DNA from: an uncultured Actinomycetota bacterium
GTDB lineage: Bacteria > Actinomycetota > Thermoleophilia > RBG-16-64-13
Length of the DNA stretch: 64,000 nucleotides
Direction: 5' to 3'
NCBI GenBank assembly: GCA_963783835.1
Contig: CAWAOX010000015.1
Coordinates: 324,667 to 388,666 of the forward strand
Part shown: one piece after another, positions 5,775 through 40,868 of the stretch
Layout: each line of letters starts with the position of its first letter
Position numbering within the stretch: position 1 is the stretch's first letter
Notes under the pieces: generated by a model
What the model saw: the letters and a program-made list of their open reading frames with translations, nothing else
What the model was told of the DNA's origin: nothing
Databases searched by the model: none
Position numbers and translations under genes: made by a program

Positions 5775-5811
5775 GGGGCAGCCGCTCCAGAACTGTCAAC
5801 GAGTCGAGGAG

Positions 5812-7030
5812 ATGGACATGAAGGTTCTCCTGGTAGGCGTAGGTGGAGTGGGCGAAGCCATGGCGGTCCTATGCAAGGATAGACCCTGGGTCGAGAAGCT
5901 GGTCCTCGCCGACTACAACGTCGAGCGCGCGAAAGAGGTCCAGGCGAAAGTGGGCCGCGCCGGCCGCATGCCCGTCGAGTTCATCGATGCGGGCGACAAA
6001 GAACAGATCGAGGCGCTTGGCCCGGCGCCACGGGGTGGACCTGATCCACAACGCGGTGGACCCAGTGTTCAACGAGGCCATCTTCGACGCGGCGTACGAG
6101 GCCGGCTGCCACTACATGGACATGGCCATGACGCTTTCCACCGCTCATGCCACCAACCCGTACTCGACGTGCGGAGTCAAGCTGGGCGACTACCAGTTCG
6201 AGCGGGCCGGCGCGTGGGAGAAGAAAGGGTTGCTTGCTTTCGTCGGCATGGGGGTCGAGCCGGGGATGGCCGACGTATTCGCCAAGTACGCCGAGAAGCA
6301 TTTGTTCGACGAGATCGAAGAGATCGGGGTCCGCGACGGGGCCAACCTGGAGGTCCGCGGCTACGAGTTCGCGCCGAACTTCTCTATCTGGACCACCATC
6401 GAGGAGTGCCTGAACCCGCCTGTGGTCTGGGAAGAGGGAAAGGGCTGGTGTACCACGGAGCCGTTCTCGGAGCCGGAGGTGTTCGACTTCCCCGAAGGCA
6501 TCGGTCCGGTGGAATGCGTCAACGTGGAGCACGAGGAGGTCCTGCTCGTGCCCCGCTGGGTCAAGTGCAAGCGGGTCACTTTCAAGTACGGTCTGGGCGA
6601 CCAGTTCATCGGCGTCCTCAAGACCATCAAGATGCTCGGTCTGGACAACCGCTTCCCTATCGACGTCAAGGGCGTGCAGGTGGCGCCGCGGGACGTGGTG
6701 GCGGCCACCCTTCCCGATCCGGCCCACTTGGGCGACCAGATGTTCGGCAAGACATGCGCGGGAACGTGGGTGAAGGGCAGCAAGGACGGCAAGCCGCGCC
6801 AAGTCTACCTGTATCAGGTGGCCGATAACGAGACCTGCATGAAGGAGTATGGAGTCCAAGCCGTGGTCTGGCAGACGGCGGTCAGCCCGGTCATCGCCTG
6901 GGAATTGCTCGAGACCGGGGTGTGGAAGGGCGCCGGAGTCCTCGGCCCCGAGGCCTTCGACCCCGACCCCTTCGTGGAGATGATGCCGAAATACGCGTTC
7001 CCCTGGGGGCTCAAGGAGATGACTGCCTGA
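5812..7030 (+). CDS. saccharopine dehydrogenase family NAD(P)-binding oxidoreductase (apparent +1 frameshift near 6020)
   Basis: N-terminus in frame 1: MDMKVLLVGVGGVGEAMAVLCKD...DKEQIEAL (Rossmann GxGxxG). Around 6015-6025 (cttggcccggcg) the protein-like sequence continues in frame 2: ARRHGVDLIHNAVDPVFNEAIFDAAYEAGCHYMDMA...FVGMGVEPGMADVF, through to stop 7030. This is typical of saccharopine/carboxynorspermidine dehydrogenases. Confidence 0.7.
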
Positions 7031-7031
7031 C

Positions 7032-7307
7032 GTGGGCTGGCTGTTCAACCGGGAACGGGTACTCTTTCGCACCCACCAGCCGCCTTTCCGGACGCCGGAG
7101 TGGGCCGCGGGGGCCCTCGTGGAACAGGAAGGCACGTTGTACCGGATCACGCGCTGGAGAGAGTTGCCGCCGGTGGCGCTGGAGCGCGGCGGGTCGGTGC
7201 ACGAATGGGAAGTCATGGGCCGGAAAGCGTCGGGCAGGGAGGTCCGTGACGAGTTGGCCAAGGGAGCCCAGTCCCTGTTGGAGGGCGAGAGCGCCAAAGA
7301 TCCGTGA
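7032..7307 (+). CDS. small hypothetical protein
   Basis: 91 aa ORF (GTG start) that fills the 365-nt gap between two + strand genes. No recognisable motif. Codon usage resembles the neighbours. Confidence 0.3.
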   Translation: MGWLFNRERVLFRTHQPPFRTPEWAAGALVEQEGTLYRITRWRELPPVALERGGSVHEWEVMGRKASGREVRDELAKGAQSLLEGESAKDP

Positions 7308-7397
7308 GGCGAAAGACTGCCTGTAGCCTCTCCTGACGGCTATGATTGACACGCTGCGTGAGCGAATCCAGACGACCAAGACCCGGGGGTTAGAGAG

Positions 7398-8783
7398 ATG
7401 TCATCGGGAACGATGAAGGTGGACCGGAAGCGCATCGCCGAGTTGGTGGAGCGGGAAGAGAAGCGTCTCGAGGATTCCACTCCCAAGTCCTACGAACTCT
7501 TCAAGAGGGCCTCCAAGTCGCTCGTCAACGGCGTGTCTTCCAGTTATCAGATGCGCGACCCCTATCCCGTGTACTTCACGCACGGAAAGGGCTCCAAGAT
7601 CTACTCGGTGGACGGCCTTGAGCTCAGTGACTTCCACAACGGTTTCGGCTGTATGGTCCAGGGACACGCCCACCCGGCCATCATCGAGGCCATCAAGAAG
7701 CGCTGCGAGCTGGGGACCCAGTTCGCGCTGCCCACCGAGGACTCGATAGTGGTCGCCGAGTATCTGGCCGAGAACTTCCGGTTGCCCAAGTGGCGCTTCG
7801 TGAACTCGGGGTCCGAGGCGACGATGGACGCCATCCGTATCGCCCGGGCCTTCACTGGGCGCGAGCAGGTGATGAAGATATTCGGTTCGTACCACGGGCA
7901 CCACGACTACGTGATGGTCAGCTTGGGCATCGCCGACTGGGGCGACATCGGCGAGCGCGACAACTACAAGTCGGTCTCGTACGGCGCAGGCATACCGAAG
8001 GTTGTCATCGAGATGACCTCGGCGGTGCCCTTCAACGACGCTCCCATGATGGAAGCGCGGATCCAGCACCTCATCGACGAGGGTCGCAAGCCCGCCTGCG
8101 TGATCATGGAAGCGGCCATGATGAACCTTGGCGTCGTTCTCCCCGAGCCCGGCTATCTGCAGGCGGTTCGCGATATAACCAAGAAACACGGCATCGTGCT
8201 CATCTTCGACGAGGTGAAGACCGGTATCTGCACGGCTGCCGGCGGCGCCGTCGAACGCTGGGGCGTCGTGCCCGATATGGTCACGCTGGCGAAGGCGTTG
8301 GCCGGCGGACTGCCCTCGGGGGCCATCGGCGGCTCGGCAGAGGTCATGAGCGTGGTAGAGACCGGCAAGGTCTACCAGGTCGGCACCTACAGCGGCAACC
8401 CGCTGTCGATGGCCGCTGCCCGGGCGAGCATGGAAGAAGTCATGACGCCGGATGCCTACAAGCATCTCAACTATCTGAACGACCGCCTTATCTCCGAGTG
8501 CGACGCCGTCTGCGCCACGTACGACTTCCCCGGCTACACGGTCGGCATCTCGTCCAAGGGCTGCGTCAACTTCGCCAGTGGCAAGATCACCGACTACGAG
8601 TCGTTCATCCGCTACCAGGACTTCGAGCTCTGCAACCTGGCCTGGCTCTACAACATCAACCGCGGTGTCATCATGGCGCCGGGGCGCGAAGAGGAATGGA
8701 CGTTGTCGGTACAGCACACCGACGAGGACATCGACCGGTACGTCAACGCCTTCGAGGGTTTGGTGAAGGAAGTGCTCGCCTGA
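7398..8783 (+). CDS. class III PLP-dependent aminotransferase (glutamate-1-semialdehyde aminomutase / omega-transaminase-like)
   Basis: 461 aa. SxGxE/PLP-fold signatures (FVNSGSEATMDAIRIAR, IFDEVKTG with the Lys of the PLP-binding region). GGAG RBS upstream. Confidence 0.85.
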   Translation: MSSGTMKVDRKRIAELVEREEKRLEDSTPKSYELFKRASKSLVNGVSSSYQMRDPYPVYFTHGKGSKIYSVDGLELSDFHNGFGCMVQGHAHPAIIEAIKKRCELGTQFALPTEDSIVVAEYLAENFRLPKWRFVNSGSEATMDAIRIARAFTGREQVMKIFGSYHGHHDYVMVSLGIADWGDIGERDNYKSVSYGAGIPKVVIEMTSAVPFNDAPMMEARIQHLIDEGRKPACVIMEAAMMNLGVVLPEPGYLQAVRDITKKHGIVLIFDEVKTGICTAAGGAVERWGVVPDMVTLAKALAGGLPSGAIGGSAEVMSVVETGKVYQVGTYSGNPLSMAAARASMEEVMTPDAYKHLNYLNDRLISECDAVCATYDFPGYTVGISSKGCVNFASGKITDYESFIRYQDFELCNLAWLYNINRGVIMAPGREEEWTLSVQHTDEDIDRYVNAFEGLVKEVLA

Positions 8784-8989
8784 CCCGGCAGAGGGTGAGC
8801 ATCCTCCGTTTCCTGCTGGGCATGCGCCCCCGCCGGCGGGCGGCGAAGCCGATGGAAGTGGCCGGGGGACCGGAGGTGCAACGCTGAGCTTGGGGACTGC
8901 TCCTCCATAAGGCCGCTGCCCGGGGTATCCTTGGCCAAGACAGCAGGCTACGACCCGGCGGAGCACATGCGCCGACCGACGGAGGGTGG

Positions 8990-9490
8990 ATGGAGACTAT
9001 CCTGACGCGCCGCAGCATCCGTAAGTACACGGCACAGCCCGTTTCCGACGATCTCGTCACCGAGTTGCTCCGGGCTGCGATGGCTGCGCCTTCAGCCGGG
9101 AATCAGCAGCCCTGGCAGTTCGTCGTCGTGCGCGACCGGGCGACTCTCGAGGTGGTATCGACGGCCAACCCATACGGGGGCATGGCCCGTGACGCTCAGT
9201 TGGCTGTGATCGTCTGCGGTGATCTGGAGCGCGAAGAGCGTCCCGGCTTCTGGGTGCAAGATTGCGCGGCGGCGACCGAGAACCTCCTCATCGCGGCCCA
9301 CGATGCCGGGCTGGGAGCCGTTTGGTGCGGCACATATCCCCGCGAGGAGCGCATGCAGCCTATCGCGGTGGCTCTTGGTCTGCCCGAGCAGGTGATCCCG
9401 TTCGCAGTGGTGCCGATAGGGTATCCTGCCGAGCACCCTGCTCCGGCCGATCGTTACGATCCAGGCCGTGTCCACTTCAACCGTTGGTAG
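8990..9490 (+). CDS. nitroreductase family protein
   Basis: 166 aa. N-terminal TRRSIRKYT...PSAGNQQPW is the classic NAD(P)H nitroreductase signature. Confidence 0.85.
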   Translation: METILTRRSIRKYTAQPVSDDLVTELLRAAMAAPSAGNQQPWQFVVVRDRATLEVVSTANPYGGMARDAQLAVIVCGDLEREERPGFWVQDCAAATENLLIAAHDAGLGAVWCGTYPREERMQPIAVALGLPEQVIPFAVVPIGYPAEHPAPADRYDPGRVHFNRW

Positions 9491-9496
9491 GGAGGA

Positions 9497-10096
9497 ATGA
9501 TGAAGAAGTCACTCGGCCCCGGCACGTGGCTTTACCCGACGCCTGTGTTCGTCGTGGGCACCTACGACGCCGCCGGTAAGCCCAACGTCATGACTGTCGC
9601 GTGGGGTGGGATCTGCTGCAGCAAACCGCCGTGCGTCGCCATATCGGTCCGCAAGGCCACGTACACCTACGGGAATCTCATGCAGCGTCGGGCGTTCACC
9701 ATCAGTCTGCCCACCCAGGATCAGGTGGTGCACGCCGACTACTTCGGCGTGGCGTCAGGGCGGGACACCGACAAGTTCGCTGCTGCCGGGCTCACGCCAG
9801 TCTCGTCCGACCTGGTCGAAGCGCCCTATGTGGGCGAGTTCCCATTCGTGCTCGAGTGCAAAGTGGTCCATGTGGCCGAACTCGGCCTCCATACGCTGTT
9901 CGTGGGCGAGATCCTCGACGTCAAGGTCGACGAAGGCTGTCTGGACGCCAAGGGCAAGCCGACCGCCGAACTCGTGCGGCCCATCTGGTGGGGGCCCAGC
10001 GAGAACCAGTACTACGGCCTGGGCGAGAATCTGGGACGGGGCTTCTCCATCGGCAGAGCTCTCGAGACCGGCTCCGATGGCCGGGCGTCGAAGTGA
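9497..10096 (+). CDS. flavin reductase-like (FMN-binding split barrel) protein
   Basis: 199 aa. N-terminal YPTPVFVVGTYDAAGKPNVMTVAWGG matches the flavin reductase domain. RBS gggagg 5 nt upstream. Confidence 0.82.
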   Translation: MMKKSLGPGTWLYPTPVFVVGTYDAAGKPNVMTVAWGGICCSKPPCVAISVRKATYTYGNLMQRRAFTISLPTQDQVVHADYFGVASGRDTDKFAAAGLTPVSSDLVEAPYVGEFPFVLECKVVHVAELGLHTLFVGEILDVKVDEGCLDAKGKPTAELVRPIWWGPSENQYYGLGENLGRGFSIGRALETGSDGRASK

Positions 10097-10137
10097 TACA
10101 GAGCCGCGCTGTCTCGAGGAGAACGGTGTCTAGTTGG

Positions 10138-10962
10138 GTGAAAAGCAGGACGGTTGTTCTGGCTACCCCAGCCCTCTTCATTGGGGTGGTTGCCGTGGCG
10201 GTCTTTGCGCTCGCGTTCACGGGCGGCTGCTCGGGCGAAGGTCCCGGGGCTCCCACTGGGCCCGACAGCGTTGTGGTCCTCACGGTGGAGCAAGCTCTGG
10301 CCGCCGAGGAAGGCCGAGAGCTCAACGTCCAAGGAGCAGTGTTCGCGACCGGTGACCAGACGATGCTGGTCTCCGCGTTGGCCGAATCCTACCCTCCCCA
10401 AGCCGGTGGGGCGACCCTGCCGGTCAAGGGGCTCGATCTGGACGGCCTCGTGGGGCTGACTTCCACCGCGGGGCAGGTGGGCGTCGCCGAGGTCACGTGG
10501 TCGGACTATTGGCCGGTGCTCACGGGGGTCGTCAAAGAGGGCGTTCTCGAGGTCCAGGGGATCCCGCGGGTCGAAGAGGACATCAGCTTCGAAGGCATAA
10601 GGCTGCGGTTCAGCCCGGTGAGCGAGCCGGTCAGTTCGGGCGATCAGGTCTGGTGGGCCTTCGATGTGACCAACACCGGCCAGGCGCCAGTGCGACTTGT
10701 GTTCTCAGACGGCCAGCGCGGAGACCTGATCCTGAGCCAGGGAGACGTGGATGCATACACCTGGAGCGCCGGCAAGAGCTTCACCCAGGGCGTCGAGATC
10801 GTCACGCTGGAGCAGGGCAAGTCCCTCTCGGTGGTGTTGCACGACACCCTGGATGTCCCAGCGGGGGACTATGCCGTGACCGCTCGGGTGACCGCGATGG
10901 TGGGCCCGTCCGGCTCAGAGGCTCCTCTGCCCGAGATCACGTCGACTCTAACGGTCCATTGA
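10138..10962 (+). CDS. putative lipoprotein (BsuPI-like C-terminal region)
   Basis: GTG 10138 gives MKSRTVVLATPALFIGVVAVAVFALAFTGGCS, a signal peptide with a lipobox (FTGGC). The track ORF 9601..10962 is an N-terminally over-extended version that overlaps the upstream gene. The C-terminal half (VWWAFDVTNTGQAPVRLVFSDGQRGDL) resembles intracellular proteinase inhibitor-like beta-sandwich domains. Confidence 0.6.
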   Translation: MKSRTVVLATPALFIGVVAVAVFALAFTGGCSGEGPGAPTGPDSVVVLTVEQALAAEEGRELNVQGAVFATGDQTMLVSALAESYPPQAGGATLPVKGLDLDGLVGLTSTAGQVGVAEVTWSDYWPVLTGVVKEGVLEVQGIPRVEEDISFEGIRLRFSPVSEPVSSGDQVWWAFDVTNTGQAPVRLVFSDGQRGDLILSQGDVDAYTWSAGKSFTQGVEIVTLEQGKSLSVVLHDTLDVPAGDYAVTARVTAMVGPSGSEAPLPEITSTLTVH

Positions 10963-10982
10963 CGGTACCCGGCGATGGCCGC

Positions 10983-13073
10983 GTGAACTATCGTGTTGGG
11001 GCAGATGTTGGGGGGACCTTCACCGACCTGGTGGCCATGGATGAAGCAGGTAGAGTCATCGTGGCCAAGGCCCCCACCACTCCGGCCGACCAGTCCGACG
11101 GTGTGATGGACGCGGTCTTCAAAGCGGGGATCGACCTGGCCCAGGTCGACTTCTTCTCCCACGGCACTACGGTCGGGGTCAATGCCGTCATCGAGAACAA
11201 GGGCGCCAGGGTCGCGGTCATCACGACCGAGGGCTTCAGAGACTCGCTGGAGTTGCGCCGGGGACAGCGGGTCATCGATAACCCGGACGACATGTACAAC
11301 CTGCAGATGGACCTGCCCCAGGACTATGTCGGAGGCTACGATCCTCTCGTGCGGCGACCGCTCCGCTTCGAGGTCCCCGAGCGTCTCGATTTCCGAGGCA
11401 ACGTGCTGAAGCAGATGGACGAGCCAGTAGTCTGGCAGATCGCGGAAGAGCTCCGCAAACGGGACGTCGAAGCCGCCGTCATCTGCTATCTGTTCTCGTT
11501 CATGAACCCGGTGCACGAGCAGCGCACTGCCGAGATCCTGCGGGAGGCGCTTCCCGGTCTCAGCCTGTCGATCTCGAGCGAGATCCTCCCGGTCATCCGC
11601 GAGTACGAGCGTCTCAGCACAACCACCGTCAACGCATACGTGATGCCCATCATGCAGTCGTATCTGCAGAGGCTGCGCGACCGTTTGAGGGCGGGTGGGT
11701 TCCAGAAAGAGCTCTACCTCATGCAGTCGAGCGGCGGGATCATGTCGGCGGCCGTCGCGGCCACCCGGCCCGTCTACACCATCGACTCCGGACCCGCGGG
11801 AGGGGTGTCCGCAGCGGCGCAGCTTGGCGTCTCGCTCGGCTATCCCGACGTGATCTCCTTCGACATGGGAGGGACCACGGCCAAGATCTGCTGCGTCCGG
11901 GACGGCAGGCCCGAGGTGACCACGCGCTTCTGGCTGGGCGGCCGCTATTTCGTGGGTGTTCCCGTGATGGACATGGTGGAGATCGGCGCGGGCGGGGGCA
12001 GCATCGCCTCGGTAGATCGGGCCGGCGCCGTACATGTGGGCCCTCGGAGCGCGGGCTCGGTGCCCGGCCCCGCCTGCTACGGCAAGGGTGGCCACGAGCC
12101 GACCGTGACCGACGCCGACCTGGTACTCGGCTATATCAACGCCGATTACTACCTGGGCGGCGACATGACGGTCGACGCAGCGGCCGCGCGAGAAGCCATC
12201 AGGGAGAAAGTCGCCGTCCGGCTGAACATGGGGGTGGCCGAAGCCGCTCATGGCATCTACCGGCTGGTGAACGCGAACATGATCGGGGCGATGCGGGTCG
12301 TCACCGTCCAGCGTGGGCACGATCCTCGGGACTTCACCCTTGTGGTGTCGGGGGGGACGGCCGCTATCCACGCCGTGCGCATGGCCCAGGAGCTCCGCAT
12401 CCCCCGGGTGATCATCCCTCTCAACGCAGGAGTGTTCTCGGCCGTTGGTCTGATCACCGCCGACGCTCGCTACGACGTCCATCGTTCTTACGTCGTCCGG
12501 CTCTCTCAGGCCGACCCCGGCCGCCTGGAAGCCATCTTCAAGGAGAGCGCGAGGGAAGCGGCCGCGCGGATCGAGGAACTGGGGTTCTCGCCGGACGAGG
12601 TAGTCACTCGCTACGAGATCGACATGCGCTACCTGGGTCAGGCCCACGAGGTGCCGGTGGAGGTGCCGCGAGAGCTGATCGAGGGAATGGATCAGCAGAC
12701 CGTCGGCAAGCTCGGCGCACTCTTCCACGAGAAGCATCTCCACCTGTTCGGACACGACTCCCGGGATTCGGAGGTCGAGTTCATGACGCTCTCTGTGTCG
12801 GCCGTAGGCCCTCGAGAGAGGGGCGAGATGCCCGAGGTGGCCGCGGGCACTCCCGACCCCGGTCCCGCGCACAAAGGAACGAGGAAGGTCTATTTCGAAG
12901 AGGCCGGCGGCTACGTGGATTGCGACACCTACGAGCGGTCGCGGCTTGCGGCGGGAATGGTGATCGCGGGGCCGGCCATCGTCGAGCAGATGGACACCAC
13001 GACGGTGCTGCCCCCGGGAGAGACGGCGATGGTCGATCGATTCGGCACCCTCATAGTGGAGTTGGCGCTGTGA
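10983..13073 (+). CDS. hyuA: ATP-dependent hydantoinase/oxoprolinase family, A (beta) subunit
   Basis: GTG start gives MNYRVGADVGGTFTDLVAMDE, the canonical HyuA N-terminus. About 697 aa. The track ORF 10497..13073 is over-extended. Confidence 0.88.
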   Translation: MNYRVGADVGGTFTDLVAMDEAGRVIVAKAPTTPADQSDGVMDAVFKAGIDLAQVDFFSHGTTVGVNAVIENKGARVAVITTEGFRDSLELRRGQRVIDNPDDMYNLQMDLPQDYVGGYDPLVRRPLRFEVPERLDFRGNVLKQMDEPVVWQIAEELRKRDVEAAVICYLFSFMNPVHEQRTAEILREALPGLSLSISSEILPVIREYERLSTTTVNAYVMPIMQSYLQRLRDRLRAGGFQKELYLMQSSGGIMSAAVAATRPVYTIDSGPAGGVSAAAQLGVSLGYPDVISFDMGGTTAKICCVRDGRPEVTTRFWLGGRYFVGVPVMDMVEIGAGGGSIASVDRAGAVHVGPRSAGSVPGPACYGKGGHEPTVTDADLVLGYINADYYLGGDMTVDAAAAREAIREKVAVRLNMGVAEAAHGIYRLVNANMIGAMRVVTVQRGHDPRDFTLVVSGGTAAIHAVRMAQELRIPRVIIPLNAGVFSAVGLITADARYDVHRSYVVRLSQADPGRLEAIFKESAREAAARIEELGFSPDEVVTRYEIDMRYLGQAHEVPVEVPRELIEGMDQQTVGKLGALFHEKHLHLFGHDSRDSEVEFMTLSVSAVGPRERGEMPEVAAGTPDPGPAHKGTRKVYFEEAGGYVDCDTYERSRLAAGMVIAGPAIVEQMDTTTVLPPGETAMVDRFGTLIVELAL

Positions 13074-14941
13074 TCCCCGGCGACGATGCGCGCAGCGCGG
13101 CGGGCCGGCGCCCGGACGTGTTCACCCTTGGAGTCTTGCGAAGTCTGCTCGAGTCCGTACCCCTCGAGATGGCCGAGGTTCTCAAGCGCACCTCGTATCA
13201 CCCCATCTTCAACGAGGTGCTCGACTTCTCCACGGCGCTCCTCGACGGCGAAGGCCGGCTGATCGCCTCCTCCATGGGGGTCACGGTACATCTCGGGGCG
13301 CTCGAACTGAGCGCGAGGGCGATCATCGACCGGTTCGGTAAGGGGAATCTCGAGCCGGGGGATGTCCTCATCCACAACAACCCCTTCCCGGGCGGCACCC
13401 ATCTCCCGGACGTGGACGTGATCACCCCCGTCCACCACGAGGGGGAACTGGTCGCCTACGCCGTGTCCCGAGGGCACCACGGCGATATCGGGGGCATGCA
13501 TCCGGGTAGCTTCGCCGGCGACACCGTGAGCATCTTCCAGGAGGGGGTGCGCATCCCGCCGATCAAGCTCTACGCCGCCGGCGTCCTCAACGAGGGAGTG
13601 CGCGACCTCTTCCTTGCCAACGTCCGGGTCCCGCAGTTCTCCTGGGGCGATCTGCAGGCCCAGGCAGCCGGCTGTCGTCTGGGGGCCAGGCGGATCGGGG
13701 AGCTCTTCGACAAGTACGGCGCCGCCGGAATGACCGCGGCCATGGAATGGGCCATGGACTACTCGGAGCAGCTCATGCGGGCCGAGATTGCCAAGATCCC
13801 CGACGGCACCTACGTCTTCGAGGACTTCCTCGACAATGACGGCATCGACAAAGACCGCCCCGTGAAGATCCACGCCCGGGTGACCGTCGACGGCAGCAGC
13901 GTCACCGTAGATTTCAGCGACTCCGACCCCCAGGTGAAGGGGCCGGCCAACTGTGTCCTCGGAGTCGCCTATTCGGCCACGTACTGCGCGCTCTTCAACC
14001 TGACGGACCCGACGATTCCCAAGAACCACGGCTGCTATCGTCCGGTCACGATCATCGCTCCCGAGGGACTGGTGGTGAACGCCCGGTTCCCGGCGCCGGT
14101 GGTGAGCGGTAATACCGAGACCTCCTTGCGCATTATTGACACGGTGAGTGCCGCCTTGGCCCGCGTCATCCCAGAGAAGGTCATCGGGGGCGACTCGGGG
14201 ACGGCCACCGCGCACACCGCGGGCGGGTTCGATCCTCGCACCGGCGAGTACTACGCGTGGTATCTCGGTTCGGACCCTACCGCGTGGGGAGCCAGGGCGA
14301 CCAAGGACGGGTTCGAACTCGCCGGCGGGCCCCGCATAGGCGGCAGCGTCTCCCAGGTCTCCATGGAGGTGTTCGAGACCCGCTACCCGTTCCTGGTGGA
14401 GTTGTACGCGTTCTACCCCGACTCGGGCGGCCCCGGTAGGTTCAGGGGCGGCATGTCGGGGGTGACGATCATGCGGCCGCTGGAGCACGAGTGCGAGGTG
14501 GGGGGTGCGAACGACCGCTGCGTCATCCCTCCGTACGGGATCTTTGGCGGCATGCCCGGGCTGCACGGCGAGAACAAGATCCTCCACGCGGACGGCAGCG
14601 AAACGCCGATCGACCGGGCGGGCGGTAAGATAGTCCTACCGGGGGACGTCCTCTATTTCCGGGCGCCGGGAGGGGGCGGCTACGGCGATCCTCTCGACCG
14701 GGACCTCGACTTCCTGCAACACGACCTGGACATCGGGCTCGTGTCGGCAGAAAGTGCAGGCCGGGACTACGGCGCGGTCCTCGACCGGTCTGGCACGGTG
14801 ATAGACAGGCAGGCTACCGAGGAAAGACGGGCCCGGCTGAAAGAGAAATGGAAACGCGACCGCATCTTCATCGACCAGAAGACACTCCCGTTCGCCCGGA
14901 TACCGTTCCGGACGGTAGGCATCGACGAGCAGATCACGTGA
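13070..14941 (+). CDS. hyuB: ATP-dependent hydantoinase/oxoprolinase family, B (alpha) subunit
   Basis: GTG 13070 overlaps the hyuA stop (GTGA). N-terminus MIPGDDARSA...DVFTLGVLRSLLESVPLEMAEVLKRTSYHPIFNEVLDFSTAL is typical HyuB. About 623 aa. Confidence 0.88.
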   Translation: MIPGDDARSAAGRRPDVFTLGVLRSLLESVPLEMAEVLKRTSYHPIFNEVLDFSTALLDGEGRLIASSMGVTVHLGALELSARAIIDRFGKGNLEPGDVLIHNNPFPGGTHLPDVDVITPVHHEGELVAYAVSRGHHGDIGGMHPGSFAGDTVSIFQEGVRIPPIKLYAAGVLNEGVRDLFLANVRVPQFSWGDLQAQAAGCRLGARRIGELFDKYGAAGMTAAMEWAMDYSEQLMRAEIAKIPDGTYVFEDFLDNDGIDKDRPVKIHARVTVDGSSVTVDFSDSDPQVKGPANCVLGVAYSATYCALFNLTDPTIPKNHGCYRPVTIIAPEGLVVNARFPAPVVSGNTETSLRIIDTVSAALARVIPEKVIGGDSGTATAHTAGGFDPRTGEYYAWYLGSDPTAWGARATKDGFELAGGPRIGGSVSQVSMEVFETRYPFLVELYAFYPDSGGPGRFRGGMSGVTIMRPLEHECEVGGANDRCVIPPYGIFGGMPGLHGENKILHADGSETPIDRAGGKIVLPGDVLYFRAPGGGGYGDPLDRDLDFLQHDLDIGLVSAESAGRDYGAVLDRSGTVIDRQATEERRARLKEKWKRDRIFIDQKTLPFARIPFRTVGIDEQIT

Positions 14942-14971
14942 CCAGGAGCCCCAAATGACCAAGAGCCGCAC

Positions 14972-15379
14972 ATGAAGAAGAAGACGTACCCTCTGTACTA
15001 CGGTGGCCAGAAACAGAAGTTCGCCCGCTCCGTCGTGGTCGGCGACATCGTGTTCCTGTCGGGCATGAGCGGACGCACCATGGAGACGGGCGACGTCTCC
15101 TCGGACGATGTCAAGGAGCAGATGCTGGTCGCTCTCGACAAGGTCCGGGCCGCGCTGGACGAGGCGGGCAGTTCCATGGAGCACATCGTGAAGACGACGA
15201 TCTACCTCAAAGACGTCAAGAACTACGACGTGATGCGGGCCACCGAGTACGAGTATTACCAGAAGTATGCCCCGGGTCTGATCGAAGAGCCGCCGGCAAG
15301 CACCTTTGTCATGCCGGCGTCGTTGGCCCGGCCGAGCATGCTGGTAGAGATCGACGTCGTCGCCTGTCTCAAGGACTGA
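14972..15379 (+). CDS. RidA/YjgF/RutC-family reactive-intermediate deaminase
   Basis: 135 aa, the typical size and fold signature of this family (VFLSGM...; C-terminal region). Follows hyuB directly. Confidence 0.75.
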   Translation: MKKKTYPLYYGGQKQKFARSVVVGDIVFLSGMSGRTMETGDVSSDDVKEQMLVALDKVRAALDEAGSSMEHIVKTTIYLKDVKNYDVMRATEYEYYQKYAPGLIEEPPASTFVMPASLARPSMLVEIDVVACLKD

Positions 15380-15437
15380 GACGGGCCCCGATGCGCACGT
15401 TGACGCACACGCCGGAGCACAGCATGGAGGAGCGAGC

Positions 15438-16298
15438 ATGAGTATGAAGTTGTACATCCTCGACTGCGGCCAGATGTGGACAGAGCACGGGTTCCTTTGG
15501 CACTTCGGCACCTGCGACGCCACCGGGGAGGAATACAGGGAAGGGCCCTTCGGCATCCGCAATATCCAATTCTTCATCGACCATCCGAAGGCGAAAGTCG
15601 TCTTCGACCTGGGCTTCACCCGGGAGTGGTTCGAGAAGCTGGTGGGGTTCCCTCACCGCAAGGGTCCGGAGGGCTTCCACATGAAGCAGGCTCCCGACCA
15701 GAACCCAATCGCCCAGCTGGCCAAGATCGGGGTCAAGCCCGAGGACGTCGACTACGTGGTCATCTCTCATCTCATGAGCGAGCACGCCGGCTACCTGCCC
15801 CAATTCGCCAACACTAAGGCCAAGATCGTGGTGCAGGAGGCCGAGCAGGAATATGCCACTCGCATAGGCACTCCGCCGCGTCCCGGCGACGAGCCCGCCG
15901 TGGAGCAGTTCCACACCTGGATGTATGTGCGCAAGTATTTCGAGGTGCCGGGGCTCGACTTCATGTCCATCAAGGGGGACTACGAGTTGCTCGGCAAGGA
16001 CGTGGAGATCCTGTCGCTGCCCGGGCACACGCCGGGGTTCCAGAACGTGATGGTCCGGCTGCCAAAGACCGGTCCGGTTTTCCTCTCGGCCTGCGAGCAC
16101 CGAGGCATGTACTACGACATTCCGGTCAACGGCTACGCTCCGGGCATACCGCATGCCTTCACGTGGTCGGCCGCCGGGGAGTTGTGGAGCTTCAAGCGCG
16201 TGCGCGATCTGGTGGAGAAGGAAGAAGGCCAGATTATCTTCGGCCACGACCAGGAGCAGTTCGATACGCTGAAGGCGTGCCCGGAGTACTACGAGTAG
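15438..16298 (+). CDS. metallo-beta-lactamase-fold hydrolase (AHL-lactonase-like)
   Basis: 286 aa. Contains VVISHLMSEHAG in the HxHxDH position, a degenerate metal-binding motif, plus a later LPGHTPG. The family call is tentative. Confidence 0.55.
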   Translation: MSMKLYILDCGQMWTEHGFLWHFGTCDATGEEYREGPFGIRNIQFFIDHPKAKVVFDLGFTREWFEKLVGFPHRKGPEGFHMKQAPDQNPIAQLAKIGVKPEDVDYVVISHLMSEHAGYLPQFANTKAKIVVQEAEQEYATRIGTPPRPGDEPAVEQFHTWMYVRKYFEVPGLDFMSIKGDYELLGKDVEILSLPGHTPGFQNVMVRLPKTGPVFLSACEHRGMYYDIPVNGYAPGIPHAFTWSAAGELWSFKRVRDLVEKEEGQIIFGHDQEQFDTLKACPEYYE

Positions 16299-16306
16299 GG
16301 GGGAGC

Positions 16307-17205
16307 ATGCATCGGGTCCTGTTACCCTTTGAGTTCTCCGAGCCGGTCACGGTCGCGGAGGCAGTGTCGCTGGTGGACGGCGTCCGAGCCAGGGTGCTGG
16401 CCGGCGGGGTCGATCTGGTGCTCAAGATGCGCTTGCGCCAAGTCGTCGTGGATAGAGTGGTGAGCCTGCAGAAGGTGCCGGGATTGGACTACATCCGGAT
16501 CGACGCTCACGCTGGGGGACAGGCGGACGGCGCGCTTTGTATCGGCGCGCTCGCGACGCTGCGGCAGGTCGAGACGGCGCCCGCCGTGCGGCGGAGATGG
16601 CCGTTGCTGGCCGAGGCCATCAGCGCGATCGTCTCGGTGCAGACCAAAGCGATGGGCACGATGGTCGGCAACCTGTGCGTCGGCACGCCGGCCTCCGATG
16701 TTGCGCCGGCTTTGTACACGCTGGGGGCCCGCGTCAGGATCGGGGGGGTGAACGGGGAGCGTGTGATACCCATCGAGCAGTTCTTCCTGGACGCAGGCAA
16801 GACGGCGGTCGGCCCGCACGAGATCGTCACCGAGATAGTGGTGCCGGCGCCGGCCGCGGGCAGCGCCGGCTCGTTCCTCAAGTTGTCGACGACCTCCGAG
16901 GACATCGCCAAGGTGAACACAGCGGTGATGATCGAGCTTGCCGGAGACGTCTGCGTTCGCGCAGGAGTCTCCGTGGGCTCGGCCGCGCCGACGCCGGTAC
17001 GTGCGGCGGCTGCGGAACAGGCCCTTATCGGCCGGGCCATGCGGGCCCACGCGATAGCCGACGCGGCCGACGCGGCGGCCGACGCCGTGTGCCCCATCTC
17101 CGATGTCCGCTCCACGGCGTGGTACCGCAAGGAGATGGTGCGGGTGCTGGTGAGGGACGCCCTCGAGAAGGCGGCCGCGCGAGCGGCAGCAGGGAAGGAG
17201 GCGTG

Positions 17206-17206
<1 letters not shown>
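16307..17206 (+). CDS. molybdenum hydroxylase FAD-binding (medium) subunit, CoxM/XdhB-like
   Basis: ATG 16307 is preceded by a gggggag RBS. MHRVLLPFEFSEPVTVAEAVSLV...VLAGGVDLVLKMRLR matches the FAD-binding PCMH domain of CO-dehydrogenase/xanthine-dehydrogenase medium subunits. About 299 aa. Confidence 0.85.
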
Positions 17207-17687
<481 letters not shown>

Positions 17688-17691
<4 letters not shown>

Positions 17692-20033
17692 CTACCGATG
17701 CCTCCTCGGCCGGCGCCTTTTCCTCGGTCGGCAGGCGGCTGGGCCGGCCGGATGTTGCCGCCAAGGCCACCGGGACGGCCCTCTACGGGGCCGACATCAC
17801 GATCCCCGGCATGCTCATCGGGCGCATCCTCATGAGCCCTCACGCCCATGCGAGGGTAGCGAAGATAGATGTCTCCAAGGCCTCGGCACTTCCGGGCGTG
17901 GCCGCGGTGATCACCTACGCCGACGTTCCCAAGCGGGGCTTCACCCGTTCGGTGATGGCCGAGGGCCTGCCGGCTTTCGCCTACGAAGGCGAGAACCAGG
18001 ATCAGTTCATCCTGTCCGACAAGGCCCGCTACATCGGGGACTGGATCGCCGCGGTCGCGGCGGTGGACGTTTACACGGCCGAGCGTGCCCTCGATCTGAT
18101 CGAGGTGGAGTACGAGGTGCTTCCGGCGGTGTTCGATCCCGAAGAGGCGCTCAAGGACGGGGCGCCGGTGGTCCATGACGGCTGGAAGGACAACGTTGCC
18201 GCCGTCGTCGACCACCCCTTCAATCGGGGAGATGTCGATGCGGCCCTGGCGGCCTCCGCTCACGTCGTGGAGTTCTCCGGGCGCAACTCCCGCCAGAAGC
18301 AGGCCCACATGGAGCCGGATGTGGCTATCGCCTCTTGGGATCCCCAGGGAAGGCTGACGGTGTGGTCGCCCTGCCAGAACGCCCATCTCGCGAAGAAGGC
18401 CATGGGCACGAGGGTGTTCGACATCGGCGAGGGCAAGGTCCGCTGGATCACGCCGGCGGTGGGCGGCGGCTTTGGGGCCCGTTTGAGCTTCGGCGTCGAG
18501 CCGGTAGCCGCGATGCTGGCGAAGGTCGCGGCCAGGCCCGTCAAGGTGGTGGTCACCCGGGAGGAAGATTTCAACGGGTGGAACAGCCGGACCGAGCAGC
18601 GCCAGACCATCAGGATCGGGGTCGACGGAGACGGGACGATCAAAGCCATAGAGCAGAGCGTGCTCTCCGATGCGGGCGCCTACTTCTCCCACAGCGGGAC
18701 GATCAGCGCGGTGAACATGCAGTCGACCCTCGGCGTCCTGCGGTCGTCGGCAGTACGAGGCAAGGCGACCATGGTCTACACGAACAATCCCACCTCGAGC
18801 GGCATGCGGGGCTATGGCAATCCCGAAGGTTCGTTCATCCTGCAACAGGTCGTCGACATGGCGGCCGAGAAGTGCGGGATGGACCCGGTGGCGTTCCGCC
18901 TGAAGAACGCCAGGGGAGTGGGCGAGCCCAGCATGTGGGAGCCTCAGAACCTTACGACCTGTGCTCTCTCCACCTGCATAGAGCGGGGCGCGGAGGCCGT
19001 CGGCTGGAAGGACAGGTGGCAGGGCTGGGGGGTGGAGAAGCAAGGCCGCTATCGTCGCGGAGTGGGGATGTCGATCATGACCCACGCGAGCGGCGCAGGC
19101 GGGTTCCTGTTGGAGCATTCCACAGCCGTGATCAAGCTGAACGAGGACGGCTCCGCACAACTGTCGGTGAGCCCCTGCGAGATGGGCCAGGGCATCCTGG
19201 GGGTGCTCTCGCAGATCGCCGCGGAGGCGACCGGCCTGCGATACGAGGACATCCGGGTAGTGACGGGGGACACAGATGTCACCCTCTTTGATATCGGCAC
19301 TCACGCCAGCCGCTCCACGTACGCCATCGGCAATGCGGTGATCGATGCGGCGAAGAAGGTCAGGGCGGCAATCCTTGCCCGAGCCGCGCGCCGTCTGGGC
19401 ATGCGCGCCGACGAGCTGGACGTGCGCGACGGCCGGGTCTACGTGAAGGCCGATCCCGGCACGACGATCAGCGTGGCCGACATCTCCCGAGATGCGATCT
19501 ACGACTACGGTACGGACGCCGAGCACATAATGGCGACCGGCAAGCATCAGTGCGTCATGCACTGTCCTAACTTCCAGGCGGGCTTCGCCGAGATCGAGGT
19601 GGACGTCGAGACGGGCGTCATCAAGGTCCTCCGGCTGGTGATAGCGCACGATATTGGCAGGGCGATCAACCCTCTCACCGTCGAAGGGTGCCTCGAAGGG
19701 GGCGCGGCGCAGGGCCTCGGCTACGCCCTCACGGAAGACCTGGTCATCGACAGGCAGACGGGCAAGGTGGTCAGCGATAGCTTCGCCACCTACAAGATGC
19801 TCTCCACGCTCGACATGCCCGAGGTCGAGGTCATCCTGGTCGAGGAGCCCGACCCGACGGGCCCCTTCGGTGCCAAGGGGGTCGGAGAGACCGGCATCAC
19901 CAACGTCGCGCCCTCCATCGCCAATGCTCTCTACGACGCGGTCGCGATCAGAGTCCACTCGCTTCCGATGACTCCCGAGAAGGTGCTCGAAGGGGGGGCG
20001 GGAGGGGGGGCGCTCCGCGGAGCGGCTACTTGA
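17688..20033 (+). CDS. molybdopterin-binding large subunit of a xanthine dehydrogenase/aldehyde oxidase/CoxL-family hydroxylase
   Basis: ATG overlaps the upstream stop (ATGA). 781 aa. Contains the Moco-binding GGGFG motif (AVGGGFGARLSF) and the a/b-hammerhead N-terminal region. The form I CoxL AYRCSFR motif is absent, so the substrate is unknown. Confidence 0.88.
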
Positions 20034-20115
20034 CGGGCCGGCGGCGCCGCGCGGCGATAGGAGAGACTCGGGTTGGGAAAGCGGTACCCTATGGGCAGGA
20101 CTGCGGAGAAGGCCG

Positions 20116-20844
20116 ATGCTGGAGGTGGACATGACTGACCAGGAGAGGGCCGTAGCTGGGGAGCCGAGGCCGGCGACCATCGCGGCGAGACCCGAGCCGA
20201 TCCGGATCGATCTGGCGCGCACGGCGGTCGTCGTCGTCGACATGCAGAACGCCTTCGTCAGCCAGGGGGGCATGTTCGACGAGGCGGGCTACGACATATC
20301 GGGCGCGCCTGCCTGCATCGCGAACAACGCCCGGTTGCTGCCGGCACTGCGGGCGGCCGGGGTCAAAGTGGTCTACCTGAAGATGAGCTACAACGAAGAC
20401 TACTCCGACTCCGGTGGGCCCGAGTCCCCGAACTGGCACAAGGAGCTAGGACTCGTCCTCATGAAGGCCCGGCCCGAGAACTGGGGCAAGTACGTCACGG
20501 AGGGCACCTGGGACGAGGAAGTGGTGGAGGAGATAGCCCCAAGTGCCGGGGACGCGGTGGTGCGTAAGCAGCGCTATTCGGGTTTCGTCGGCACGAACCT
20601 CGACATGATCCTGAAGACCCACGGGATCCGCTACTGCCTCTACACTGGGGTAGCGACCAACGTCTGCGTCGAGACCACGCTGCGGGACGGCTATTTGCTC
20701 GACTACTGGCCCCTCCTCGTGGCCGACGCCTGCAACAATTCGGGGCCGGAACACAACCGGCTGGCGACCGAATGGAACGTGGAGCACGCGTTCGGGTGGG
20801 TGACGACCACGGCGGATGTGCTGGCGGCGCTGAAGGCGGAATAG
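20116..20844 (+). CDS. isochorismatase-family cysteine amidohydrolase (RutB / N-carbamoylsarcosine amidase-like)
   Basis: 242 aa. TAVVVVDMQNAF N-terminal motif and a later Cys-containing VATNVCVETTLRDG region typical of isochorismatase-like hydrolases. Confidence 0.8.
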   Translation: MLEVDMTDQERAVAGEPRPATIAARPEPIRIDLARTAVVVVDMQNAFVSQGGMFDEAGYDISGAPACIANNARLLPALRAAGVKVVYLKMSYNEDYSDSGGPESPNWHKELGLVLMKARPENWGKYVTEGTWDEEVVEEIAPSAGDAVVRKQRYSGFVGTNLDMILKTHGIRYCLYTGVATNVCVETTLRDGYLLDYWPLLVADACNNSGPEHNRLATEWNVEHAFGWVTTTADVLAALKAE

Positions 20845-20913
20845 CCCTGGCCGCAGGGGCCGGGACGGAGTTCGGGCTGAACATAGAAAGCCGGAGGAAA
20901 GGAGAGGGGCGCC

Positions 20914-21198
20914 ATGCCGTACGTACTGATCCAACACAATGTGGCGAACTACGACAGGTTCGAGGTGATCTACAACGACGATGAGGCCCGGAGACAGCGG
21001 AGCGGCTCGAAGGGCGGCAAGCTCTATCGGAACTCCGTCGACCCGAACAACATCATCGCGCTCTTCGAGTGGGATACGGTCGAGCACGCGCACGCTTTTG
21101 CGAATTCGTACGAGTTGAAAGAAGCCGTCGAGTGGGCGGGAGACGCGACACCGCCTCGAGCCATCGTCATGGAGGAGTTTCTGGTTACGAACGCCTAG
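20914..21198 (+). CDS. small hypothetical protein (possibly ABM/Dabb-like alpha+beta barrel)
   Basis: 94 aa ORF with an aggaaaggagagg RBS immediately upstream. The fold guess is weak. Confidence 0.5.
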   Translation: MPYVLIQHNVANYDRFEVIYNDDEARRQRSGSKGGKLYRNSVDPNNIIALFEWDTVEHAHAFANSYELKEAVEWAGDATPPRAIVMEEFLVTNA

Positions 21199-21226
21199 AG
21201 CAGATACGAGAAGGGGAGGTCTACGA

Positions 21227-21505
21227 ATGAGCGGCACGGGTCGCTTCACGCTCGACGAAGCCAGGATGGTCGGCGATAGTCTGGGCGTCGGCTGGGAGAG
21301 CTTCGACGTCGATCAGTTCCACAAGGGTATGGAGGTGGAGCTCGAGCACGGGGCCCGCGATCCGGAGACCAACGTGACCGGCGACGACATGCTCCTGACA
21401 GGCAAGATCGCCTACGCGCACCTCAAGGAGTTTCCAGACTACTACGACAGGCTGGAGCTCATGGAAGTAGAAGCCGAAGCCTACTGGGACGCCCAGAAGG
21501 CCTGA
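21227..21505 (+). CDS. small hypothetical protein
   Basis: 92 aa ORF with a gaagggga RBS upstream, in tandem with the preceding small ORF. No recognisable motif. Confidence 0.45.
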   Translation: MSGTGRFTLDEARMVGDSLGVGWESFDVDQFHKGMEVELEHGARDPETNVTGDDMLLTGKIAYAHLKEFPDYYDRLELMEVEAEAYWDAQKA

Positions 21506-36579: not shown

Positions 36580-39956
<3,377 letters not shown>

Positions 39957-39960
<4 letters not shown>

Positions 39961-40868
39961 CGGCGGCCTCCGTACCGACCTGGGAGCCGGCGGGCGGCTT
40001 GACCGCCACTCGCTCGCTCGCCCGGGTGGCCGCCAACCGGGCTCTTGGCAGCCTGGTCTGGCTCACGCTGGAGGTCACCGGGTGGCCGGGGGCGCGCCCG
40101 GGTCAGTTCGCCCTTCTTCAAGCACAGGACTCCCGGTGCTTTCTGGGCCGCGCGCTCTCGGTCTCTTGGGAAGAAAAGGGGTCTGTCTCCTTTCTTATCG
40201 CTCCGGTAGGAGGGGGGACGCGGGAACTGTGTGCGCTTCGCCCAGGGGAGCCGGTGTGGGTTCTCGGTCCCCTCGGCAACGGCTTCGACCTGGAGGCGCT
40301 GACCGCCGGGGCGGCTCGGGTAGTGATAGTGGCCGGGGGAGTCGGCGCCGCGCCCTTCCCCCTGCTGTTGCGGCGCCTCGGGGCCGTCGATGCCGGCGGC
40401 CGGTCTGCCGTCCGGGCCGCCGGCAGGCCCTTGGAGGTGCTCATCCTGCTCGGCTTCCGCGACGACGCTCAGGCTGAAGGCCGGTGGCCCCTCCTCGATG
40501 CGGCGGCGGATGCCGAAAAAGGACGGTCGGTGGCGTGTAGCGCGAAGATCGTTACTGAGGACGGGAGTCTCGGTGGCGCCGAAAAGGTGACCGACGCCCT
40601 CCGGCGCGAGCTCCGGCCGGGTGATCGCCTGGCGGTCTGCGGTCCCTGGGCCATGAGCGAGGCCGTGGCGCGGATCAGTAGCGCGGTCCCCGACGTGGAG
40701 GCTTGGTTCAGTCTCGAGGCAGGGATGGCCTGCGGGGTTGGATCGTGCCACGGCTGCGTCGTCCCGCTGGCCGACGGCACGACGGCCCGCGTGTGCCGGG
40801 AAGGACCGGTCTTCCCCTCCCATGCCCTTTTCCGCTTGGGCGCCGGCCCGGCTGGAGGAGCGTCGTGA
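39957..40868 (+). CDS. pyrK: dihydroorotate dehydrogenase electron-transfer subunit
   Basis: GTG overlaps the carB stop (GTGA). FAD/NAD-binding AGGVGAAPF and the C-terminal 2Fe-2S ligands CGVGSCHGC...C. Confidence 0.88.

Follow-up and report, generated by a model that had tools for sequence, protein, structure and literature searches.

The closest described counterpart of the system treated here is the anaerobic degradation of indoleacetate in Aromatoleum/Azoarcus (the iaa pathway), which is, to our knowledge, the only known pairing of a molybdenum (Mo) hydroxylase with a lactamase of the HyuAB type. In this pathway, a Mo enzyme of the xanthine dehydrogenase (XDH) family and an ATP-dependent lactamase of the HyuA/HyuB family are encoded together, and the ring is attacked independently of oxygen, through hydroxylation next to the ring nitrogen followed by ATP-driven opening of the lactam; in the work of Ebenau-Jehle et al. 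from 2012, the Mo dehydrogenase reportedly makes the 2-oxo lactam that IaaCE opens. IaaCE is a gamma-lactamase for 2-oxoindoleacetyl-CoA (PMC5214803), and the "hydantoinase-like hydrolase IaaCE" of A. aromaticum is listed among the HyuAB homologs (PMC8453981). Beside the Mo enzyme and the lactamase, the iaa gene set includes a CoA ligase, a CoA transferase, a B12-dependent mutase, and a benzylmalonyl-CoA dehydrogenase (PMC8360864). Here, we analyze a 14-kb gene cluster (7398-21505) in a stretch of 64,000 nucleotides, henceforth the window, from contig CAWAOX010000015.1 of an uncultured Actinomycetota bacterium. Within this cluster, seven genes at 10983-20033, encoding HyuA, HyuB, a Rid-fold protein, a metallo-beta-lactamase (MBL)-fold protein, and the FAD, [2Fe-2S], and molybdopterin subunits of an XDH-family Mo hydroxylase, form a functional unit that combines the same two types of enzyme.

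The seven-gene module resembles the iaa genes in encoding together an XDH-family Mo enzyme and a HyuAB-family enzyme, and the oxygen-independent order of hydroxylation and lactam opening in that pathway is also the one proposed below for the module. The likeness is one of enzyme types and reaction order, and by this analogy the iaa pathway would be the closest precedent for the proposed chemistry. However, neither the window cluster nor the other loci that carry the module contain the CoA ligase, the CoA transferase, the B12 mutase, or the benzylmalonyl-CoA (acyl-CoA) dehydrogenase of the iaa set. Instead, the module carries a Rid-fold protein without the catalytic Arg and an MBL-fold protein with a non-canonical metal motif or, in other lineages, a TatD-like hydrolase.

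A preliminary description of the window had read about 14 co-linear genes as one unusual catabolic cluster with Rut-like members, possibly a hybrid or undescribed route for a pyrimidine-like, hydantoin, or lactam substrate. The genes it named were all found on the + strand, at the places and in the families that it gave (ORF listing together with Pfam and NCBIfam scans), and it was right that an undescribed catabolic operon is present, in that a module is co-conserved and no published description of it was found. Pfam was used to assign families and the NCBIfam equivalog cut-offs served as a test of specific function; the profile hidden Markov models confirmed the families, and no gene of the cluster reaches any curated equivalog cut-off. 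The 14 kb are nevertheless a composite, in which a seven-gene operon forms a variable island within a conserved chromosomal backbone. The operon starts with hyuA (10983-13073, +), which encodes the ATP-binding alpha subunit and matches Hydant_A_N, Hydantoinase_A, and Hydant_A_C over its full length, and hyuB (13070-14941, +), which encodes the hydrolytic beta subunit of 623 amino acids (Hydantoinase_B, 1-519 of 519, E 2e-170). These are followed by the genes of the Rid-fold protein (14972-15379, +; Ribonuc_L-PSP, 82.9 bits) and the MBL-fold protein, of the lactonase-like branch (15438-16298, +; Lactamase_B, only 26.7 bits). The three adjacent hydroxylase genes encode the FAD subunit of 299 amino acids (16307-17206, +; FAD_binding_5 and CO_deh_flav_C), the [2Fe-2S] subunit (17206-17691, +; Fer2 and Fer2_2), and the molybdopterin large subunit (17688-20033, +; Ald_Xan_dh_C, MoCoBD_1, and MoCoBD_2), which together make up the full three-subunit architecture of the XDH family. 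Starts and stops overlap at hyuA/hyuB (GTGA), FAD/FeS (TGATG), and FeS/Mo (ATGA), and the first of these overlaps predicts that hyuB is translationally coupled to hyuA.

The unity of the module is seen in its conservation. Neighborhoods were sampled from three starting genes, those of HyuB, the Mo subunit, and the RutB-like amidase that lies beyond the module, and by a metagenome scan from HyuB; loci below 50% G+C were read through ORF listing and tblastn. The HyuB ortholog clade, at 62-94% identity, was drawn from metagenomes and metagenome-assembled genomes (MAGs) in JGI, ENA, Logan, and NCBI. The seven genes occur together in about ten contigs with differing surroundings, which are from Actinomycetota MAGs where a taxonomy is given, and the module proteins remain 77-98% identical across four different surroundings. 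In the locus with the closest HyuB (L093, 94% identical), the whole arrangement of the window is repeated; at 84-90% HyuB identity, the surroundings differ and the order hyuA-hyuB-rid-mbl-FAD-FeS-Mo stays intact. The first type of surroundings is the backbone of the window itself (L093, L117, L007, and the contig of P0003). In the second (L006), a methyltransferase lies upstream and a membrane protein downstream. In the third (L009, L010, and L126), a solute-binding protein with a twin-arginine translocation (TAT) signal is inserted ahead of the hydroxylase, which is followed by a second Rid paralog, a TatD-like hydrolase, and an IclR regulator. In one further module locus (L008), the flank is limited by the end of the contig.

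Beyond these contigs, HyuAB-Rid and the hydroxylase are found together in other arrangements. In L020, L118, and L106 (HyuB 73-82%), the hydroxylase comes after HyuAB-Rid, and its large subunit shares only 45% identity with that of the window. L105, L108, and L110 (HyuB 71-73%) show the order hydroxylase-TatD-HyuA-HyuB(-Rid), with a large subunit 61-73% identical; in L107, a hydroxylase 36% identical lies 4 kb downstream. An XDH-family hydroxylase is thus beside HyuAB-Rid in about 16 of the 20 loci with enough flank, and the tallied loci span 46-66% G+C. Since the pairing occurs in varied gene orders, at varied G+C, and with three hydroxylase clades, the link recurs across lineages, and the pairing of HyuAB with a three-subunit Mo hydroxylase that the preliminary description had singled out has held up. 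The MBL gene is a core member of the module in its Actinomycetota version. Among orthologs of the Mo subunit at 73-82% identity, the MBL gene is kept and HyuAB is not (L087, beside UbiD and AMP-binding genes). Orthologs at 57-65% are solitary in L088 or, in Gemmobacter fulvus (L089), part of a cluster with a glyoxalase, a cupin, an FAA hydrolase, and a second hydroxylase, which looks like one for heteroaromatic degradation.

HyuA contains the ATP-site motifs DVGGTFTD, DMGGT, and GSVPGP, read in the translation, which match the DxGGTxTD, DxGGT, and GxxPGP patterns of the P1, P2, and A motifs defined for caprolactamase (PMC8453981). With the caprolactamase models (NF050156, NF050157), HyuA scores 608.7 bits on CapA and HyuB 351.2 bits on CapB, both against a cut-off of 1000. 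The PDB matches of HyuA are N-methylhydantoinase (479 bits) and CapA (440 bits), and that of HyuB is 6yra_B (303 bits). CapAB, 5-oxoprolinase, and N-methylhydantoinase are therefore alike to the module enzyme in their two subunits, their hyuA-hyuB order, their intact ATP motifs, and as the best family and PDB matches, but they differ from it in the distance of those scores from the cut-offs, the extra Rid-fold gene, and the linkage to a Mo hydroxylase. Judged by model scores, PDB neighbors, the short HyuB, and the lack of a four-Cys gamma subunit, HyuAB is more likely an ATP-dependent enzyme of the lactamase/hydantoinase family, with predicted activity on a cyclic amide, than a carboxylase.

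For the hydroxylase, the best PDB match of the large subunit is the alpha subunit of 4-hydroxybenzoyl-CoA reductase (367 bits), followed by dehydrogenases of the nicotine pathway, quinoline, and CO, with xanthine dehydrogenases near the bottom (134-145 bits). The N-heterocycle Mo hydroxylases (for nicotinate, quinoline, and 6-hydroxypseudooxynicotine) and 4-hydroxybenzoyl-CoA reductase share the three-subunit architecture, with PDB matches of 190-367 bits; however, none is closely related, and no ring-cleaving oxygenase follows in the window. Glu734 in the GAKGVGE motif does not vary among 20 homologs, and we take this residue to be the catalytic Glu of the XDH family. A CO dehydrogenase (CODH) was rejected, with 296 bits on TIGR02416 against a cut-off of 991; moreover, the stretch expected to align with the active-site loop of CODH reads MRGYGNP and has no Cys. 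A 4-hydroxybenzoyl-CoA reductase was also rejected, with only 87 bits for the FAD subunit on the beta-subunit model of that enzyme; the FAD subunit reaches no equivalog cut-off. The enzyme is thereby placed, from its sequence, in the XDH/N-heterocycle hydroxylase type and not with CODH. The designation as a CoxM-CoxS-CoxL-type enzyme in the preliminary description was right about the three subunits and their overlapping genes but not about the type.

The gene of the Rid-fold protein directly follows hyuB in nearly all the ortholog loci that extend past hyuB. The position of Arg105 of RidA from S. enterica (Arg104 of RutC) is occupied by Ser, in the motif PPAST, in the window protein and about 30 orthologs, according to two independent PDB alignments. 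No deaminase activity has so far been seen in Rid proteins that lack this Arg, and the R104A variant of RutC is inactive (PMC8113886). Relatives of the protein are few, with only 35 at E <1e-30 among 1.84 billion representative proteins; the best of them are proteins of 410-440 amino acids with three tandem Rid domains, none with the catalytic Arg (P0361-P0375), which may correspond to the usual Rid trimer in a single chain. In several module loci (L009, 12312-12752; L010, 12315-12749; L126, ~18673; L101, ~5080), the TatD-like hydrolase has as its neighbor the second Rid paralog, which is 51-54% identical and carries Glu or Asp in place of the Arg; this hints at a heteromeric Rid assembly. The MBL-fold protein scores 83-104 bits on the models of acyl-homoserine lactone (AHL) lactonase and 4-pyridoxolactonase, far under their cut-offs, and misses all lactonase equivalog cut-offs; AHL lactonases in PDB match it at about 70 bits. 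Its metal motif reads HLMSEH, not the canonical HxHxDH, as in its eight orthologs (L006, L007, L008, L009, L087, L090, L093, and L117). The ortholog of this type in L090 is paired with a thiamine pyrophosphate (TPP)-dependent enzyme.

Taken together, a scheme can be proposed in which an N-heterocycle is converted into a lactam by the hydroxylase and the lactam is opened by HyuAB with ATP. In the first step, the Mo hydroxylase would use water as the oxygen source to place an oxo group on an N-heterocycle, probably a heteroaromatic acid, at the position adjacent to the ring nitrogen, yielding a lactam. In the second step, HyuA would phosphorylate the lactim form of this lactam with ATP and HyuB would hydrolyze the ring. 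The Rid-like and MBL-like proteins (TatD-like in other lineages) could then process the product of ring opening or a side group; alternatively, the Rid-like protein could be an accessory subunit. The attack on the ring would require no O2. We consider the chances of this scheme, which is drawn by analogy with the iaa pathway, to be about even. Regarding the substrate, the best PDB matches of the solute-binding protein in the module of L009 and L126 are 4ey3/4eyg/4eyk (44 bits), presumably binders of benzoate derivatives, and UbiD, transhydroxylase-like, and beta-oxidation genes lie near some relatives, which is a weak hint of an aromatic acid.

Several points weigh against this scheme. None of the module proteins has a close relative among characterized enzymes, and all of them miss the NCBIfam equivalog cut-offs. 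The order of the two steps is one that we infer. HyuAB-Rid occurs without a hydroxylase within 10 kb in L002, L004, L104, and L115, where the neighbors are thiolase and CoA-ligase or TRAP-transporter genes. The Rid-fold protein does not have the Arg on which the imine deaminase activity of known Rid proteins depends, so that its part in the scheme is tentative, and the MBL-fold protein lacks the canonical HxHxDH, so that even a hydrolase activity does not seem assured. Moreover, the module contigs of the closest relatives all belong, where a taxonomy is given, to one phylum, and their synteny could partly reflect shared ancestry.

The steps could also run in the reverse order, with HyuAB first opening a lactam, a hydantoin, or an oxoproline analogue and the Mo enzyme acting later as an aldehyde oxidoreductase or another oxidoreductase. 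The XDH family does include aldehyde oxidoreductases, models of glyceraldehyde dehydrogenase score well on the small subunits, and the loci with HyuAB-Rid and no hydroxylase imply that HyuAB-Rid can work on a substrate of its own. However, an enzyme that would make the aldehyde, such as a transaminase or an oxidase, is not conserved in the module, and in the iaa pathway the hydroxylase reportedly acts ahead of the lactamase. We regard the reverse order as unlikely.

It is less likely still that the module serves purine catabolism, with the hydroxylase as a xanthine dehydrogenase and HyuAB opening xanthine, urate, or a derived cyclic ureide. The best NCBIfam matches of the three subunits do include XdhA (NF043082), XdhB, and XdhC, and JGI names the homologs "xanthine dehydrogenase molybdenum-binding subunit", but none of the cut-offs is reached (633.6 bits for the large subunit against a curated 780, 178.6 against 310, and 198.2 against 217), and the solved xanthine dehydrogenases stand far below 4-hydroxybenzoyl-CoA reductase among the PDB matches of the large subunit. 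Furthermore, a nucleobase transporter, a uricase, an allantoinase, or a deaminase was not found in any module locus, and orthologs at 57-73% identity lie in clusters that resemble those for aromatic or heteroaromatic degradation (UbiD, glyoxalase, cupin) instead.

The single hybrid route of about 14 genes put forward in the preliminary description, for a pyrimidine-like, hydantoin, or lactam substrate, would have HyuAB in the place of RutA, the RutB/C/E/F-like proteins processing ureidoacrylate-type products, and a carbamate kinase harvesting carbamate. The genes are co-linear on one strand, the amidase resembles RutB of E. coli, the arrangement nitroreductase-flavin reductase-...-RutB-like is kept in L093, L007, and L117, and the creatinine pathway offers a precedent, since a HyuAB enzyme is followed there by a ureidohydrolase of the isochorismatase family. 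However, the loci that keep the arrangement share one backbone and are therefore close relatives. On a contig of 3.56 Mb from a related genome (L090), with backbone proteins 52-90% identical to those of the window, the order reads aminotransferase ... flavin reductase-BsuPI-[opposite-strand block]-RutB-like-FBA-PEPCK-aminotransferase-MFS-carbamate kinase (FBA, class II fructose-bisphosphate aldolase; PEPCK, phosphoenolpyruvate carboxykinase; MFS, major facilitator superfamily). The opposite-strand block consists of a TPP enzyme, an MBL homolog, a zf-CDGSH protein, and a lumazine-binding protein; HyuAB, Rid, and the hydroxylase are absent from this locus and the backbone is intact. Conversely, the Rut-like and other backbone genes are missing around the module in L006, L009, L010, L126, L020, and L118. 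Since the outer genes keep the same order where HyuAB, Rid, and the hydroxylase do not occur, the aminotransferase, the flavin reductase, the lipoprotein, the RutB-like amidase, FBA, and the carbamate kinase are chromosomal backbone and not part of the module. A single pathway of this kind is very unlikely, and the carbamate kinase falls out of it as a backbone gene that L090 keeps without HyuAB. The preliminary description had itself named a lack of co-conservation as evidence to the contrary, and this is what the neighborhoods show for the outer genes, although the seven core genes are co-conserved.

The labels of the four Rut-like proteins fare similarly. Their families are shared with the Rut system at the level of superfamilies, but all four models stay under their cut-offs: RutB (TIGR03614) at 254.6 bits against 378, RutC (TIGR03610) at 39.8 against 169, RutE (NF003768) at 28.1 against 152, and RutF (TIGR03615) at 27.9 against 254.75. 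The Rid protein has lost the Arg, and the pocket of the amidase has changed. Only the amidase (20116-20844, +), a cysteine amidohydrolase of the isochorismatase family, is specifically RutB-like, with 214 bits against E. coli RutB (PDB 8bkd) over residues 21-233 and about half of the residues identical by eye. In 121 members of its clade (at least 62% identity), the Asp-Lys-Cys triad and a Gln are invariant in the alignment, and Y29, Y35, N72, and W74 of RutB (E. coli chain numbering) are invariantly replaced by F, M, M, and Y. Asn73 (N72 in the chain) binds the substrate and is required for the lactamase activity of RutB (PMC12553813). Thus, the clade is a subfamily apart from RutB, its pocket is more hydrophobic, and its real substrate probably differs from that of the ureidoacrylate-type label. 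The clade (P0241-P0360) is large and abundant in metagenomes, under the JGI label "ureidoacrylate peracid hydrolase"; an exact-sequence look-up of the window protein found no record. The RutB-like gene lies beside FBA in L090, where the module is missing, and beside a branched-chain-type ABC transporter in L092. As the preliminary description had noted, RutA is missing: no luciferase-like monooxygenase of the RutA type is encoded at 7398-21505, where every ORF was assigned to another family. Thus, compared with E. coli Rut (rutABCDEFG), four superfamilies are held in common and the amidase is clearly RutB-like, but RutA, RutD, and RutG are not present here and conservation of the Rut-like genes is not tied to that of the module.

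The creatinine/N-methylhydantoin pathway was also compared, as it resembles the window in having a HyuAB-type enzyme near a ureido-amidase of the isochorismatase family. It was rejected: the window amidase matches N-carbamoylsarcosine amidase (PDB 1nba) with only 53.7 bits and belongs to the backbone, and neither a creatinine deaminase nor a sarcosine oxidase is present.

It is highly improbable that HyuAB and the small Rid protein form a carboxylase that acts on ketones with ATP, as acetone and acetophenone carboxylase do. A third small gene does follow hyuB, as acxC follows acxB (PMC5214803), and the trio of L002 has a thiolase on one side and a succinyl-CoA-ligase-like pair on the other. 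However, the carboxylase models are the weaker ones (ApcC 372 bits against 608 for CapA, ApcD 148 against 351 for CapB), HyuB has 623 amino acids against 684 for the Apc beta subunit and 776 for the Acx alpha subunit (PMC8453981), and the gamma subunit of the carboxylases binds a metal through four Cys (PMC5214803), while the Rid protein has a different fold and a single Cys. A carboxylase was rejected on these three grounds. On the sediment contig of this locus (L002/L100, 3192-14356), HyuAB-Rid (HyuB 76%) lies between a transhydroxylase-like Mo enzyme plus thiolase and the succinyl-CoA-ligase-like pair, with an IclR regulator and no XDH-family enzyme. Lastly, a chance juxtaposition, in which even the seven core genes would have no common function, has hardly any credit, because, even if the closest module loci come from related Actinomycetota and their synteny is partly inherited, HyuAB-Rid is repeatedly paired with three hydroxylase clades, in varied gene orders and on contigs that differ widely in base composition, and starts and stops overlap inside the module.

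Outside the module, the class III aminotransferase (7398-8783, +; Aminotran_3), which is similar to glutamate-1-semialdehyde aminomutase, falls short of the NF000818 cut-off (345 bits, where 398 are required); L090, which lacks the module, has it at 88% identity, and most module loci do not have it. The APC permease (4167-5774) and the gene similar to saccharopine dehydrogenase (SDH) and carboxynorspermidine synthase (5812-7030, +), both upstream of the cluster, are present as previously noted, and the latter carries a 1-nucleotide frameshift, its two ORFs corresponding to the N- and C-terminal domains. One extra C lies near 6016 compared with the 90% identical gene of L093, and the gene is intact in L093 and L001; it is either a pseudogene or the product of a sequencing error. 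The permease, the SDH-like gene, a 91-amino-acid ORF (7032-7307), and the aminotransferase (4167-8783 in all) travel together (L001, L093) and give the impression of an independent module of the amine or polyamine type that has nothing to do with the HyuAB/hydroxylase operon.

The small nitroreductase-family protein (8990-9490, +; Nitroreductase; 166 amino acids) is present in L093, L001, and L007 and absent from L006, L009, L010, L020, and L090. Directly upstream of hyuA, a nitroreductase of a different subfamily, 29% identical to that of the window, is found in L005 (7146-7835) and L118 (6726-7463). Nitroreductases of two subfamilies are thus located upstream of hyuA in distinct sublineages. 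The link of the window gene with the module is uncertain, and a nitroreductase-family flavoenzyme may have a role alongside the module. In L118, MoaF and a short-chain dehydrogenase/reductase precede the nitroreductase. The flavin-reductase-domain protein (9497-10096, +; Flavin_Reduct) is kept at 69% identity in L090, where it adjoins the BsuPI-domain lipoprotein, located in the window at about 10126-10962 (+; BsuPI).

Downstream of the amidase gene, a protein of 94 amino acids (20914-21198, +), possibly Dabb/ABM-like, has no Pfam match at default settings and a weak one with DUF1330 (15 bits). A 39% identical homolog lies downstream of the hydroxylase in L087 (13067-13342), and L020 has an ABM protein at the corresponding place (11033-11344); in three different contexts, the large subunit of the hydroxylase is thus followed closely by a small protein of the Dabb/ABM/DUF1330 type. 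The last gene of the cluster (21227-21505, +; DUF5661) stays with FBA, the next gene in the window, in L007, L117, and the contig of P0003, and is a backbone gene that travels with it.

On a larger scale, carA (396-1592) and carB-pyrK-pyrD (36580-41833) place the region between parts of the pyrimidine biosynthesis genes. The flanks are as the preliminary description had them, but the ~35 kb in between also hold housekeeping genes, including those of a photolyase, FBA, a DAK/DegV protein, PEPCK, an M48 peptidase, and a formyltransferase. Along this separation of carA from carB-pyrK-pyrD, L007 and L090 are syntenic with much of the backbone, between the aminotransferase and the carbamate kinase. 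The edges of the island are not marked by an RNA gene, since no Rfam family or tRNA was found in the window, and base composition (~65% G+C in the window) does not distinguish the island from the rest. A scan for promoter-like sites (one observed, 2.9 expected) and terminator-like sites (12 observed, 8.1 expected) was uninformative.

The enzyme families and the logic of hydroxylating and then hydrolyzing a ring are known, but none of the papers searched describes a pathway that combines these families, nor the make-up of the module, how widely it occurs among uncultured bacteria, or its two aberrant small proteins. The locus also illustrates that a row of co-linear genes, however suggestive their family names, may turn out to be a mosaic of backbone and island. 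In anoxic soils and sediments, many N-heterocycles (for example, the carboxylates of pyridine, pyrrole, indole, and quinoline) are broken down by routes with unknown ring-opening steps, and a recurrent operon pairing a water-dependent Mo hydroxylase with an ATP-driven lactamase would, if the scheme is true, be a testable answer to how these rings are opened. Functions would then also be gained for three poorly understood groups, namely the HyuAB paralogs, for which N-methylhydantoinase or oxoprolinase is the usual mis-annotation, the Rid proteins without the catalytic Arg, and the MBL-fold proteins with the HLMSEH motif. As a more tentative possibility, which we hold with less confidence than the scheme itself, HyuAB, the Arg-less Rid protein, the XDH-family hydroxylase, and the MBL or TatD hydrolase may represent a widespread and modular oxygenase-free system for cleaving N-heteroaromatic rings in uncultured soil, sediment, and marine bacteria, with the Rid-like protein as a dedicated third component, either a subunit or a new activity. 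If so, the single precedent of the iaa pathway would extend into a general strategy.

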